Virus record (IMG/VR): IMGVR_UViG_2529292872_000016
Length of the DNA stretch: 6,105 nucleotides
From: a virus
Lineage: Duplodnaviria; Heunggongvirae; Uroviricota; Caudoviricetes
Strand: one strand, 5' to 3'
The notes beneath the pieces are model-generated. The model had not been told where the DNA came from. It searched no databases and saw only the letters and a program-made list of their open reading frames with translations. Numbering within the stretch: position 1 is the first letter of the stretch; the number at the start of each line of letters is the position of its first letter. The position numbers and the translations under genes were made by a program. Of the stretch, positions 1,990 through 4,293 are shown piece after piece.

Positions 1990-2703
1990 TCAATAATCAA
2001 GCCCTTGCCTGGATACATATCTGTCTGGCGGGAAGCCATAATAGCGGTGAAATACAGAAATAAAGTAGGACCGGCTTGAATAACCACATTTTTCTGCTAC
2101 AGCCTGTCCATATCCATACCGGGAACATAACATATTTACAGCAACACGCATCCGCTCTTCCAGCAACAAGCGACTGAACATGCCCCCTTCATTTTTCAGT
2201 TTTGTCTTTAACAAACTCTCACTCATATGCAACTGTAGAGCAATCGCACCAAGCGTCCAGCTTGCTGATATATCTGTCTGAATTATCGCCCTGACTTTGG
2301 CACTTATGCTGGATAAACATCCACTTAAAAACAATGACATCCGTTCATCTGTTTCAAACAGAGACAGGCAGGCCATCATAAGAAACATATCCGTGACCTC
2401 TCCGGAAAATCCCTGGCTGGTAATTAAAGCCGCAGCCAACGCAGGATTGTTGGGTTCCAGTGACAGATAAAGCGGAACGTCAGTCAGATGAGTTCTTGTC
2501 AGCTTATGCTGAATTTCCAGATATTGACTTACTATGGAATGGTTTATATCGAAAATTTTAACTTTGCCATAATGCATAAGGAAAAGCGCCCTGATGCATT
2601 TGGTGGCCAGAACGACTGAGCCGGGCTTAAGTGACAACGTATCCTTTTCAAGAAAAATATTAATTGGGGAGCAAACCATGATAACTGAACAGACAACAAC
2701 CAT
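1990..2703 (-). CDS. AraC/XylS-family transcriptional regulator, small AppY/GadX/Rns-like type without a sugar-binding domain (237 aa)
   Basis: Track ORF 1990..2703. The C-terminal ~100 aa carry the twin helix-turn-helix AraC signature (WTLGAIALQLHMSESLLKTKLKNEGGMFSRLLLEERMRVAVNML...GYGQAVAEKCGYSSRSYFISVFHRYYGFPPDRY). The N-terminus MVVVCSVIMVCS... resembles the AppY-type N-terminus. The gene is AT-rich with multiple ATA/AGA/AGG codons. Confidence 0.9.
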   Translation of the reverse strand: MVVVCSVIMVCSPINIFLEKDTLSLKPGSVVLATKCIRALFLMHYGKVKIFDINHSIVSQYLEIQHKLTRTHLTDVPLYLSLEPNNPALAAALITSQGFSGEVTDMFLMMACLSLFETDERMSLFLSGCLSSISAKVRAIIQTDISASWTLGAIALQLHMSESLLKTKLKNEGGMFSRLLLEERMRVAVNMLCSRYGYGQAVAEKCGYSSRSYFISVFHRYYGFPPDRYVSRQGLDY

Positions 2704-2738
2704 TATAATTTTACTTTCATTAGCAATTGGTTAGTTCA

Positions 2739-2769
2739 ATTATAGCCCCAAAAGGTAAATTATCATCAA
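2739..2769 (-). promoter_or_regulatory. Candidate sigma70 promoter for the AraC-family gene
   Basis: Minus strand TTGATG (-35; plus 2764-2769), 19-bp spacer, TATAAT (-10; plus 2739-2744), about 36 nt upstream of the ATG at 2703. The -10 is perfect but the spacer is long, so this is tentative. Confidence 0.3.
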
Positions 2770-2830
2770 CACATAAGCAAAGGACTGACAGGTGCCCCTT
2801 ACACCCACCAGCCGCCCATTTACCACAAAT

Positions 2831-2854
2831 AAAAAAGCCTTCAGGACTGAAGGC
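2831..2854 (-). terminator. Intrinsic terminator (minus strand) between the CPBP gene region and the AraC-family gene
   Basis: Minus-strand RNA: GCCUUCAGUCCUGAAGGC (7-bp stem, 4-nt loop; plus 2837-2854) followed by UUUUUU (plus-strand A6 at 2831-2836). Confidence 0.5.
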
Positions 2855-2911
2855 GTCTGTAACAACCAAACTGATAGTCTGCCAGACCCGCCATAACCAG
2901 CTGGGTCAGTA

Positions 2912-3037
2912 TTAACTGGCAGCGTTCGCGTGAAAGGTAAGTATTCTGCGCAATCTCCCCGACTGTCGCCGGTCGGTAACGCTTAATTCATTAAACACCA
3001 CTCTGGCGGTTTCTGTCATATCCTGCTGTTTCAGCAT
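2912..3037 (-). CDS. Candidate small ORF (41 codons), hypothetical; very tentative
   Basis: Minus-strand ATG at 3037-3035 with purine-rich GGAAAGGGAAAAAGAC upstream; translation MLKQQDMTETARVVFNELSVTDRRQSGRLRRILTFHANAAS, stop TAA at 2914-2912. It sits between two minus-strand terminators. No recognisable domain; could be a gene remnant or non-coding. Confidence 0.15.
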   Translation of the reverse strand: MLKQQDMTETARVVFNELSVTDRRQSGRLRRILTFHANAAS

Positions 3038-3160
3038 GTCTTTTTCCCTTTCCGGTTAACGTGACACACCAATAACTCTTGTCGAAAAAGCCAGCAAGCT
3101 GAAAGACCGGTATTAATAACCACCAGCGACATTTAACGCACTGCGCTACTTTGCGGGCAC

Positions 3161-3182
3161 AAAAAACCCGCTCAGAGGCGGG
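3161..3182 (-). terminator. Intrinsic terminator downstream of the CPBP protease gene (minus strand)
   Basis: Minus-strand RNA: CCCGC-CUCUGA-GCGGG (plus 3167-3182; 5-bp all-G/C stem) followed by UUUUUU (plus-strand A6 at 3161-3166); about 140 nt past the CDS stop at 3324. Confidence 0.55.
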
Positions 3183-3323
3183 GTCAAGCTATGCGGCGAA
3201 ATAACCACTCTTAACAGCATACCTGATTTTTTACGTACGTAAATGCTTTGCCGTGCATATTTTTCATGCAAATGTCACGTCCTGCTATTTTTCAGTCTTA
3301 TAAATTTAAAACCATAGAAAAAA

Positions 3324-4142
3324 TCAATTATGTTTTAAAAATGGATAGGTAAAGAATAACAAGTGACACAGATTCAAACCAAAATGGAAAAGGGTGGCAA
3401 CCCACAAACGCCCACTCCACATCCATGACAATCCATACACAACACCAGATAACGTGGCAAATAATACAAGTAAAGCACCACCTGAATAGTGATAAAAACC
3501 AAACAACAAAGCCGCCACAATTAATGCAACCAATGGAGACGTTACTTCTGATAGCCGTGATTGAATATACCCTCTAAATAATGATTCCTCTGCCAGAGAC
3601 ACAAAAAACAAATTAGCCAATATAAACTCTGGCAACCACTCAGGAAAATGAATCTCTGGCTTTAATCCACCAAAAAAAACAGCCAAAAACAGGATAAGAG
3701 GAACAGAGAGCGACAGAGCCCCCCACTTCCACAAAGACACTTCTGATTTTACTTCTTTTTTAAACAAAGAAGATGTACACAGGACTAACAAAAATGGCAC
3801 CAGCGCTTTATCAAAATTAAAATACATTGTATAGGGAGTACTTTGAGGGCCAACAGTAACAGAATTTAGCACTACAGGATTGTGAAACCCTGGCCATAGA
3901 TGGAAAAATAATGCTATGGCTGATAAAACTATGCCAACTTCATATATAGATTTAGCCCAGGCGTTATATTTCCAGTTGAACTTCAAAATAATAAAAAAAA
4001 CGATTGTAGCAACAAAAAATAACACCGACCAATCAATAATATCATTAAGCACAGCCAGGACAACAGACACCGTCAACAATGAAAAAGCCACTACCTTATG
4101 CCAACTGAGAGTTGACAGTGACAGTACTAACACAATCCACAT
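3324..4142 (-). CDS. CPBP-family (CAAX protease / Abi, PF02517-type) polytopic intramembrane metalloprotease, 272 aa
   Basis: Track ORF 3324..4148. I place the start at ATG 4142-4140 because a perfect AAGGAG (plus 4148-4153) lies 5 nt upstream; the track start at 4148 is a GTG inside that SD. The protein is highly hydrophobic with multiple predicted TM helices and all three CPBP motifs in the canonical order: EExxxR (LAEESLFRGY), FxxxH (LFGFYHY) and HxxxN (HFGLNLCH). The gene is very AT-rich. Confidence 0.8.
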   Translation of the reverse strand: MWIVLVLSLSTLSWHKVVAFSLLTVSVVLAVLNDIIDWSVLFFVATIVFFIILKFNWKYNAWAKSIYEVGIVLSAIALFFHLWPGFHNPVVLNSVTVGPQSTPYTMYFNFDKALVPFLLVLCTSSLFKKEVKSEVSLWKWGALSLSVPLILFLAVFFGGLKPEIHFPEWLPEFILANLFFVSLAEESLFRGYIQSRLSEVTSPLVALIVAALLFGFYHYSGGALLVLFATLSGVVYGLSWMWSGRLWVATLFHFGLNLCHLLFFTYPFLKHN

Positions 4143-4173
4143 AAGCACTCCTTTTATTTAATGATGAAGATTG

Positions 4174-4202
4174 ATTATCAATATTTTCAATTCACCAGGC
4201 AA
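4174..4202 (-). promoter_or_regulatory. Candidate sigma70 promoter in the Q-to-CPBP intergenic region (either the late promoter pR' equivalent or the cargo gene's own promoter)
   Basis: Minus strand TTGCCT (-35; plus 4197-4202), 17-bp spacer, GATAAT (-10; plus 4174-4179), about 31 nt upstream of the CPBP ATG. It lies in the 145-bp AT-rich gap after the Q stop, the position where lambdoid phages carry pR'. Confidence 0.3.
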
Positions 4203-4293
4203 CATTTTATCTACCTTCCACAATACATGACCATCAAAAAATAAACATGTTAATTATAAACACAGAAAACATAACCCTCATCACTATATATCC

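Follow-up and report, generated by a model that had tools for sequence, protein, structure and literature searches.

Introduction

The region behind the antiterminator gene Q is a classic cargo site of phages, with stx and the porin gene lc/nmpC as examples. In Stx-converting phages the stx genes are late-operon cargo next to the tRNA genes ileZ-argN-argO, downstream of a Q-controlled promoter and terminator, and in this they would resemble the locus described here. The porin of phage PA-2 and prophage DLP12 occupies the same slot as one of our two cargo genes, with a QuuD-like Q on one side and, on the other, the same 85-nt element that precedes the holin gene. However, it is encoded on the opposite strand, is unrelated to the CPBP protease of our locus, and the Q alleles linked to it share only 83-87% protein identity with the Q analysed here. 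The catalytic motifs of the CPBP/Rce1-like protease family are EExxxR, FxxxH and HxxxN/D. Members of this Pfam family (CPBP/'Abi', PF02517) confer bacteriocin self-immunity in Firmicutes, and the family also includes the lysostaphin-resistance proteins LyrA/SpdC.

The other cargo gene encodes an AraC-family regulator that belongs to the Psr/PatE family (PsrA, PsrB, PatE). According to a review, these proteins activate gadE, yhiF and hdeA and repress LEE type III secretion by an indirect route (PMC10877973). The gene ecs1087 (ECs_1087) of prophage Sp4 has been named psrA (2026; PMC13502914), and PsrB is reported to be about 90% identical to PsrA; we use the names as given in these two papers (PMC10877973; PMC13502914). 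As psrA has already been studied experimentally, there is little new at the locus itself. The outcome of our analysis is a corrected anatomy, in all likelihood that of two independent cargo slots, with exact junctions.

Locus identity and base composition

The window, by which we mean the whole 6,105-nt stretch of IMG/VR record IMGVR_UViG_2529292872_000016, appears to represent the Q-to-tRNA segment of a lambdoid prophage of the Sp4 type from enterohaemorrhagic E. coli, with all genes on the minus strand. It is collinear with prophage Sp4 of E. coli O157:H7 Sakai (ECs_1082-ECs_1088; NC_002695.2, 1175292-1182008) and shares with it the gene order DUF968, rusA, Q, CAAX/CPBP protease, small ORF, AraC-family regulator, ileZ-argN-argO and esterase, an arrangement that is already known from the annotation of the Sakai reference genome. 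The identity to Sp4 amounts to 97.8% across 6.1 kb, with zero differences at ~3150-5000 and the mismatches grouped in three patches. In contrast to Sp4, DUF968 is split in the window, the C-terminal two-thirds of the AraC-family protein are PsrB-like and the frameshift in the winged-helix region is another one. In Sakai, pchA follows ~4 kb past the esterase, which is beyond the extent of the 6.1-kb contig. The features of the locus, in the direction of transcription, are:

4294..4665, minus strand: antiterminator Q, QuuD-like (Pfam PF06530, E = 8.7e-52); slot-1 module
4174..4202, minus strand: candidate sigma-70 promoter of the CPBP gene (TTGCCT, 17-nt spacer, GATAAT); best site in the consensus scan
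3324..4142, minus strand: CPBP/Rce1-like intramembrane glutamic endopeptidase, 272 aa (PF02517, E = 1.4e-19); slot-1 cargo
3160..3243, minus strand: 85-nt element with TTTACG, 16-nt spacer, TATGCT, ~45-nt leader, hairpin CCCGCC..GGCGGG and T-run (from conservation and the terminator scan)
2841..3037, minus strand: small winged-helix gene ('TrmB family', PHROG 331), frameshifted (from RefSeq annotation in relatives and a PHROG match)
2837..2854, minus strand: intrinsic-terminator-like hairpin after the winged-helix gene, conserved in relatives (terminator scan)
2739..2766, minus strand: candidate promoter of the AraC-family gene (ATGATA, 16-nt spacer, TATAAT; 10/12 matches; consensus scan), at the right junction of the slot-2 module
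1990..2703, minus strand: AraC-family regulator of the Psr family, 237 aa (PF00165, PF12833); slot-2 cargo
1712..1961, minus strand: tRNA cluster with a CAU-anticodon tRNA annotated as ileZ, then argN and argO (ARAGORN; ileZ1, argN1 and argO1 in Sakai)
1680..1697, minus strand: first strong terminator downstream of the AraC-family gene, past the tRNAs (terminator scan)

The initial annotation had described positions 1990-4293 as conspicuously AT-rich compared with both flanks. This is borne out by a GC content of 0.403, against 0.543 in 1-1989 and 0.541 in 4675-6105 (chi-square 91.6, p = 1e-21), and the profile is anything but flat. The right boundary at 4293, on the other hand, has to be moved, since the low-GC domain extends over 1966-4615 (GC 0.399) in the best fit with two change points and therefore takes in most of the Q gene (GC 0.42 in 4294-4665). 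Nor is the tract evenly AT-rich, as it is interrupted by ~420-480 bp of normal GC at ~2770-3243 (0.48 in 2767-3243, and 0.50 in 2781-3200 according to a five-segment fit). By composition alone, a single low-GC block is favoured (BIC 8373 for three segments vs 8383 for five), and the division of the tract into two modules that we propose is based on homology and not on GC.

The difference to the surroundings also holds for third-position GC, which is 0.43 in the AraC-family gene, 0.35 in the CPBP gene and 0.36 in Q compared with 0.52-0.57 in rusA and DUF968. In its nucleotide composition the tract is thus unlike the neighbouring phage genes, as is expected of morons. For Q itself, GC values of 0.42-0.47 are found for the QuuD-like alleles of all relatives examined, and its low GC may be typical of this Q family instead of indicating a joint acquisition with the CPBP gene. 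The codons ATA, AGA, AGG and CGA together account for 4.2% in the AraC-family gene, 1.8% in CPBP and 4.7% in Q, with 1.4-3.2% in the flanking genes; a tie between rare codons and the adjoining tRNAs was dropped because this signal is too weak.

The Q-protease module

Q comprises 123 aa from the ATG used in its RefSeq relatives, or 126 aa from the GTG at 4674 of the mechanically called ORF, and shows ~78% nucleotide identity to quuD of DLP12. Alignments with relatives that have other Q types lose homology at ~4685 and not at 4293. The first module (~4685-3244) would accordingly consist of the QuuD-like Q and the CPBP gene, with the protease filling the slot between Q and the 85-nt element.

The CPBP protein reaches 70.6 bits against PF02517 (cut-off 22.4) and retains all three catalytic motifs intact (EESLFR at residue 187, FGFYH at 216 and HFGLN at 255). 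Its counterpart in Sakai is ECs_1085, and the DNA is identical to Sakai throughout the segment. It shares the Pfam family with the CPBP/'Abi' immunity proteins; unlike in the bacteriocin-immunity systems, neither a bacteriocin nor a partner gene is present near the window gene or near the two chromosomal homologues that we examined. These two, from Enterobacter and Dickeya, are among the Enterobacterales homologues with ~50% identity and lie in chromosomal, non-phage contexts; their neighbours are unrelated to each other and include no conserved partner gene. A search of 50,697 phage records gave no match to a CPBP homologue in isolated phages, the PADLOC defence models matched neither CPBP nor the AraC-family protein nor Q, and a limited literature search retrieved no experimental report on the protease (ECs1085). 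Within E. coli, the protease is found in ~10% of the complete genomes, mainly in the EHEC serotypes O157:H7, O145:H28, O55:H7, O103:H2 and O111.

The distribution of both genes points to a strict linkage, in which the protease gene and its own QuuD-like Q allele are apparently inherited together. The Q allele is present in 605 genomes (568 at an identity of at least 95%) compared with 572 genomes that carry Q and CPBP, and the protease occurs in all 21 IMG/VR loci with a Q of at least 92% protein identity and in none with a Q of 87% or below. Behind other QuuD-like Q genes, slot 1 is filled by the nmpC/lc porin, a 146-aa ORF, a 148-aa ORF or the 409-aa L22 of phage P27. A diverged variant of the module (L013) encodes a CPBP protein with 83% identity directly after its Q, and the promoter site reads TTGTCA-17-GATAAT in this case.

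The Psr-family module and the backbone between the slots

The second module (~2768-1966) would comprise the Psr-family regulator with its own promoter, directly followed by ileZ-argN-argO. The protein carries an AraC-type double HTH at its C-terminus (PF00165, E = 3.3e-13 in two stretches; PF12833, E = 2.8e-9; both above the gathering scores), and its best NCBIfam match is YdeO, full length and under the cut-off of that model. The double HTH, the YdeO-like full-length architecture and the position in a lambdoid prophage next to tRNAs are common to the window protein and the Psr/PatE family. It is 94.9% identical to ECs_1087 (237-aa translation) and 95.8% identical to a second O157 allele (L017), which itself is 90.7% identical to ECs_1087. 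In contrast to the named Psr proteins, the window allele is a chimera of a PsrA N-terminus and a PsrB-like remainder: residues 1-80 are identical to ECs_1087 of Sakai Sp4 (PsrA) and residues 82-237 to the second O157 prophage allele, a putative PsrB. In the protein collection, this exact chimeric protein comes from just one contig. Judged by its homologues PsrA and PsrB, the regulator would activate gadE and the GAD acid-resistance regulon and, in consequence, repress LEE type III secretion, assuming from the 95% identity that the chimeric allele has a PsrA-like function.

In the junction alignment, the left border of slot 2 lies at ~1962-1966 and is marked by the tRNA cluster, and homology to methyltransferase-bearing relatives breaks at ~2768-2775 on the other side. 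Altogether, the module was found at 1325 places in 726 genomes. Rfam gave no match inside the tract and, outside of it, only the tRNAs plus STnc100. The earlier claim that each cargo gene has a candidate promoter and terminator of its own is borne out in part. By consensus matching, sigma-70-like sites precede both genes (4202-4174 and 2766-2739). The first predicted terminator beyond CPBP (3182-3167), at which the CPBP transcript would end, lies in the conserved backbone, outside the CPBP module, and the terminator scan yielded no convincing terminator between the AraC-family gene and the tRNAs.

The backbone between the slots (~3243-2770), with its normal GC, would hold the 85-nt element and a decayed winged-helix gene. 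With the latter, located at ~3037-2841, the tract contains a third, frameshifted gene and not exactly two as initially stated. Relative to the intact 65-aa versions in relatives it has suffered a 1-nt deletion near 2972, and Sakai has another 1-nt deletion. The backbone between the slots has matches in ~2286 genomes, and the winged-helix gene appears to be part of this conserved backbone and not cargo.

Two exchanged modules or one insertion

Taken together, the window very probably contains two independent cargo modules, which reside in two hotspots of the late-regulatory region of an Sp4-type prophage and are presumably exchanged by recombination in the conserved backbone. The module junctions are at ~4685, 3243, 2768 and 1966. 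As proposed initially, both genes are accessory cargo of the Q-to-tRNA/Q-to-lysis hotspot: like morons, they are missing at the same position in otherwise homologous relatives, which hold other genes or nothing there. They are not core genes either, as only 540 of 5426 complete E. coli genomes carry the tract in full; these genomes come from a RefSeq collection so strongly skewed to O157:H7 that genome counts do not equal independent events.

The initial annotation had explained the locus by a single horizontally acquired 2.3-kb island that brought two morons into the Q-tRNA interval in one step. Such an event would fit the AT-richness of the whole tract, the joint presence of both genes in the 540 genomes and the existence of versions with the tRNAs directly after Q, as in the PPompW phages with a distance of 195 bp. 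However, the two genes vary independently of each other: in a set of 20 metagenomic loci that share identical Q-CPBP modules, the AraC-family gene comes next in 10, a DNA methyltransferase in 8 and neither in 2, and conversely the AraC module is found behind four different Q types. In addition, the two genes are separated by the normal-GC backbone with its third gene, Q itself is located within the variable AT-rich module, and a repeat search for insertion signatures detected only short, chance-level repeats; the window also has no transposase or integrase ORF. We therefore regard a single insertion as very unlikely. Even less probable, to the point of being hardly tenable, is that the low GC reflects the native composition of the regulatory region in this lineage and that the genes are core and not cargo. 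This idea draws on the low GC common to the QuuD-like Q alleles and on the constant association of CPBP with this Q allele, but it conflicts with unrelated genes or none in the same slots of close relatives, with a GC of 0.53 for the methyltransferase in slot 2 and with the chromosomal contexts of the CPBP homologues in Enterobacter and Dickeya. For the AraC-family gene it is already contradicted.

The conserved element between the slots

Downstream of the cargo, the 85-nt element is present in 73 of 80 loci with a QuuD-like Q, in 23 variants. Of the seven loci that lack it, six end within ~1.3 kb of Q and the seventh is L066. TTTACG, CGTAAAAA and TATnnT are invariant across the variants, with the conserved stretch starting right at the -35 hexamer. 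Both DLP12 and the viable phage ev243 have the element ~140 nt upstream of the holin gene. Its promoter matches the consensus at 8/12 positions, which is under the threshold of our scan. Based on this pattern, we infer that the element combines the late promoter (pR') with the first late terminator (tR') of the QuuD-type Q.

In phages with a Q of the lambda type, the promoter adjoins this gene. If this were also the case here, CPBP would lie between pR' and tR' and be constitutively expressed in a short late leader, and the element, as tR' plus conserved upstream sequence, could act only as a terminator, with the late promoter just after Q. Besides the precedent of lambda, a sequence in L005 located ~80 nt before the same hairpin, which we take to be pR'-like by comparison with lambda pR', speaks for such an arrangement, and so do several promoter-like sites that the consensus scan found between Q and CPBP as well as the fact that Q directly adjoins the element in 0/73 loci, meaning that the slot is never empty. 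Nevertheless, there is no conservation 3' of Q across cargo types, since homology stops at or before the Q stop codon, whereas the element is kept in all cargo types with its conserved part starting exactly at the -35-like hexamer. Furthermore, the porin is encoded on the opposite strand in ~45 loci and in ev243, so that a promoter next to Q would produce 1.4 kb of antisense RNA before the terminator is reached. A late promoter next to Q thus seems unlikely to us.

With the late promoter placed in the element, CPBP would lie upstream of it and outside the late operon, and its expression in the lysogen would depend on a promoter of its own. One may extend this to a combined reading, in which the element is the QuuD-type late promoter and terminator, this Q family always keeps its cargo between Q and its own promoter, and the Q-linked CPBP is a lysogen-expressed membrane protease that provides a selectable host trait, e.g., immunity to bacteriocins, toxins or superinfecting phages. 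As a whole, we consider this combination tentative and rather doubtful. It is also possible that the ~50-nt leader RNA from the element is a small regulatory RNA like StxS. An identity of the element with the sRNA HnrS was rejected, as an HnrS-like sequence was detected solely in a related prophage (L001, ~1844-1900), beyond the window.

The candidate late promoter and terminator between the slots would make psr part of the late operon controlled by Q and leave the protease out of it. Downstream of this putative promoter, the AraC-family gene has the same relative position as stx and would additionally receive read-through transcription under active Q; it lies upstream of the tRNAs, whereas stx lies downstream of them. 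If true, prophage induction would raise PsrA as it raises Shiga toxin. In this context, a protein search among the Stx2 phage matches found a close homologue of the AraC-family protein only in phiSTEC1575-Stx2k, in which a psr-like gene immediately precedes the same tRNAs and stx2k.

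The locus in relatives and its gene layout

Along its whole length, the window aligned to 535 complete E. coli genomes (coverage of at least 80%). It is collinear, at 97.8% identity, with ECs_1082 to ECs_1088 of the Sp4 prophage of O157:H7 Sakai, and the locus is an ordinary one that was already known. Differences from Sakai are concentrated in the AraC gene, the winged-helix region and DUF968, whereas 3150-5000 (CPBP, Q and rusA) contains none. Every gene is encoded on the minus strand, and the list below runs from right to left.

Features of the window
6086-5039, minus: DUF968 gene, two ORFs in the window
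5026-4655, minus: rusA
4665-4294, minus: Q antiterminator, PF06530 family
4142-3324, minus: CPBP (Rce1-like) membrane protease
~3037-2841, minus: small winged-helix gene, frameshifted
2703-1990, minus: AraC-family regulator
1961-1712, minus: three tRNAs (ileZ, argN and argO by annotation of relatives)
Truncated by the left window end, minus: SASA/NanS-type esterase

The DUF968 gene consists of overlapping ORFs of 145 aa and 205 aa, with indels relative to Sakai near 5664 and 5688, where relatives encode a single protein of 349-352 aa; this split is either a true pseudogene or a draft-assembly error. The tRNA at 1886-1961 (-) is called Met(CAU) by ARAGORN but ileZ in the Sakai/RefSeq annotation, that is, a tRNA-Ile2 whose modified CAU anticodon reads AUA. 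Rfam strongly matches 1445-1635 (minus) to the sRNA family STnc100, at 138 bits where the gathering score is 47; this segment lies beyond the AT-rich tract, with the tRNA terminator on one side and the esterase gene on the other.

Two modules around a conserved backbone

The initial annotation had described one AT-rich cargo island of two genes, CPBP and AraC, inserted at 1990-4293 between Q and the tRNA cluster. The AT-richness is real, since the GC content of this tract is 0.403 compared to 0.543 in the left flank and 0.541 beyond Q (chi-square 91.6, p ~1e-21), a three-segment GC model yields a likelihood ratio of 129, and third codon positions have a GC content of 0.35-0.43 in the CPBP, Q and AraC genes versus 0.52-0.57 in rusA and DUF968. 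However, the best-fitting low-GC domain spans 1966-4615, so that most of Q falls within it. With five segments, the fitted GC is 0.41 for 1971-2780, 0.50 for 2781-3200 and 0.37 for 3201-4620. As BIC slightly prefers three segments, composition alone does not require this inner split; it is homology that requires it.

Alignments to relatives revealed four junctions, at ~4685, ~3243, ~2768 and ~1966. Phages carrying other types of Q cease to be homologous at ~4685, within the last rusA codons, and Q itself is, judged from these alignments, part of the variable module. At ~3243 a conserved backbone begins, which extends to ~2770, contains an 85-nt element and the small winged-helix gene with its terminator, and is matched by ~2286 genomes, mostly non-EHEC. 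The AraC module starts at ~2768 and ends at ~1966, at the 5' end of the first tRNA. Cargo occupies two positions: slot 1 is bounded by Q and the 85-nt element, slot 2 by the winged-helix gene and the tRNAs.

Contents of the two slots
Slot 1, window: CPBP
Slot 1, PA-2, DLP12 and phage ev243: lc/nmpC porin, opposite strand
Slot 1, Stx2e prophage: 146-aa ORF
Slot 1, other relatives: 148-aa ORF
Slot 1, phage P27: 409-aa L22
Slot 2, window: AraC (Psr)
Slot 2, relatives: DNA methyltransferase
Q-to-tRNA interval, PPompW phages (different Q type): cargo-free

Alternative or absent genes at the same positions in relatives bear out the reading of CPBP and AraC as cargo. Against a single two-gene insertion stand the four junctions, the different slot contents, the AraC module (1325 places in 726 genomes) lying behind four different Q types, and the lack of flanking repeats; neither such repeats nor mobility genes were found at the locus. 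By sequence comparison, the pattern is that of ordinary lambdoid module exchange via recombination in the conserved backbone.

The winged-helix gene (PHROG 331) carries different 1-nt deletions, near 2972 in the window and near window position 2891 in Sakai (13344-13583 of the Sakai locus L006), and it appears to have decayed separately in each lineage. It is intact in L017 and L018, two prophages where this AraC module follows Q genes of other types.

Linkage of Q and CPBP

Among 80 QuuD-like Q loci found by scanning IMG/VR, CPBP was present in 21/21 with a Q of at least 92% protein identity and in none with 87% or less. In complete genomes, this Q allele (at least 95% identity) occurred in 568 and Q together with CPBP in 572. 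A diverged CPBP (83% protein identity) directly follows its Q in E. albertii and E. coli prophages that have neither the AraC gene nor the tRNAs. The 20 Q-CPBP loci with sufficient downstream sequence continue into AraC (10/20) or a methyltransferase (8/20), and the remaining two lead directly to a holin or to a Shiga-toxin-like A subunit. In the IMG/VR prophage contig L042 (Q 94% identical in protein, CPBP 85% identical), the 85-nt element directly precedes, at ~+1759 from the Q stop, a homologue of the Shiga-toxin A subunit that shares 54% identity with Stx2eA and is possibly Stx1-like, so that the CPBP module is here associated with a toxin gene.

A probable late promoter and expression of the cargo

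The 85-nt element (3243-3160) was found in 73 of the 80 QuuD-like loci, always downstream of the cargo and at least 503 nt from Q. Six of the seven loci lacking it stop within ~1.3 kb downstream of Q; in the seventh, L066, it is absent from 6 kb downstream of Q. Across 23 variants, TTTACG, CGTAAAAA and TATnnT are invariant. Conservation starts exactly at the TTTACG hexamer, upstream of which the sequence varies with cargo type, and the later part comprises a ~45-nt leader followed by a GC-rich hairpin and a T-run. Directly downstream of Q, comparison across cargo types revealed no conserved sequence. In DLP12, whose lysis operon is stated in papers to be under DLP12 Q control, and in the viable phage ev243, the holin lies ~140 nt downstream of the element. 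We consider it quite likely that the element combines the late promoter and first terminator of this Q type.

In L005 (~4394-4474, minus), representing prophages with a lambda-type Q (PF03589), GGTAAATTTGCTCTAACGATGGG precedes the same hairpin, a sequence that closely resembles the lambda pR' -10 and pause region. Because of this pR'-like sequence, several Q types seem to share the hairpin as their first late terminator. Within the 85-nt element, the depositors of the phage PA-2 record J02580.1 annotated a CRP-binding site (L019 1535-1555), whose TCACA half-site is not kept in the window.

Since CPBP lies upstream of the inferred late promoter, its own promoter would be expected to drive it; the best candidate (4202-4174) is conserved in the diverged variant. 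The AraC-family gene psr would be located inside the late operon, downstream of that promoter. With a candidate promoter of its own (2766-2739) and no terminator ahead of the tRNAs, it would be transcribed in the lysogen, and induction would raise its expression as well, as happens with stx.

The cargo proteins

All three CPBP motifs are intact. Homologues of ~50% identity are spread over Enterobacterales, and the two contexts examined, in Enterobacter and Dickeya, are chromosomal without conserved neighbours. CPBP had no counterpart among the 50,697 phage records searched and matched none of the defence-system models, and a literature search found no paper mentioning ECs1085, its Sakai counterpart. 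An envelope or immunity function expressed in the lysogen is a guess that we make with low confidence.

The Sp4 gene ecs1087 was named psrA in a 2026 paper (PMC13502914), and a 2024 review describes PsrA, PsrB and PatE as prophage-encoded AraC-like regulators (PMC10877973). The window protein shares 94.9% identity with the Sp4 copy and is a clean chimera, in which residues 1-80 exactly reproduce Sp4 PsrA and residues 82-237 an allele from a second O157 prophage. This allele is 90.7% identical to PsrA, which equals the PsrA-PsrB identity in the review (PMC10877973), and is therefore probably PsrB. The chimera suggests gene conversion between co-resident prophages; in the protein collection, the exact protein occurs on one contig only. 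Lambda-like phages (Lambda_ev series, mEp332, ev099; H207-H222) carry AraC-family genes towards the right end of the genome whose products share 36-39% identity with Psr, and such regulators appear to be recurrent in lambdoid phages.

Far outside the window, between the lysis and terminase genes of L001 (an Sp4-like prophage of strain 2013C-3277; ~1844-1900, plus), a sequence complementary to the last five mazF codons, as judged against a back-translation (degenerate-codon pattern), is followed by a terminator; such complementarity has been published as a characteristic of the sRNA HnrS.
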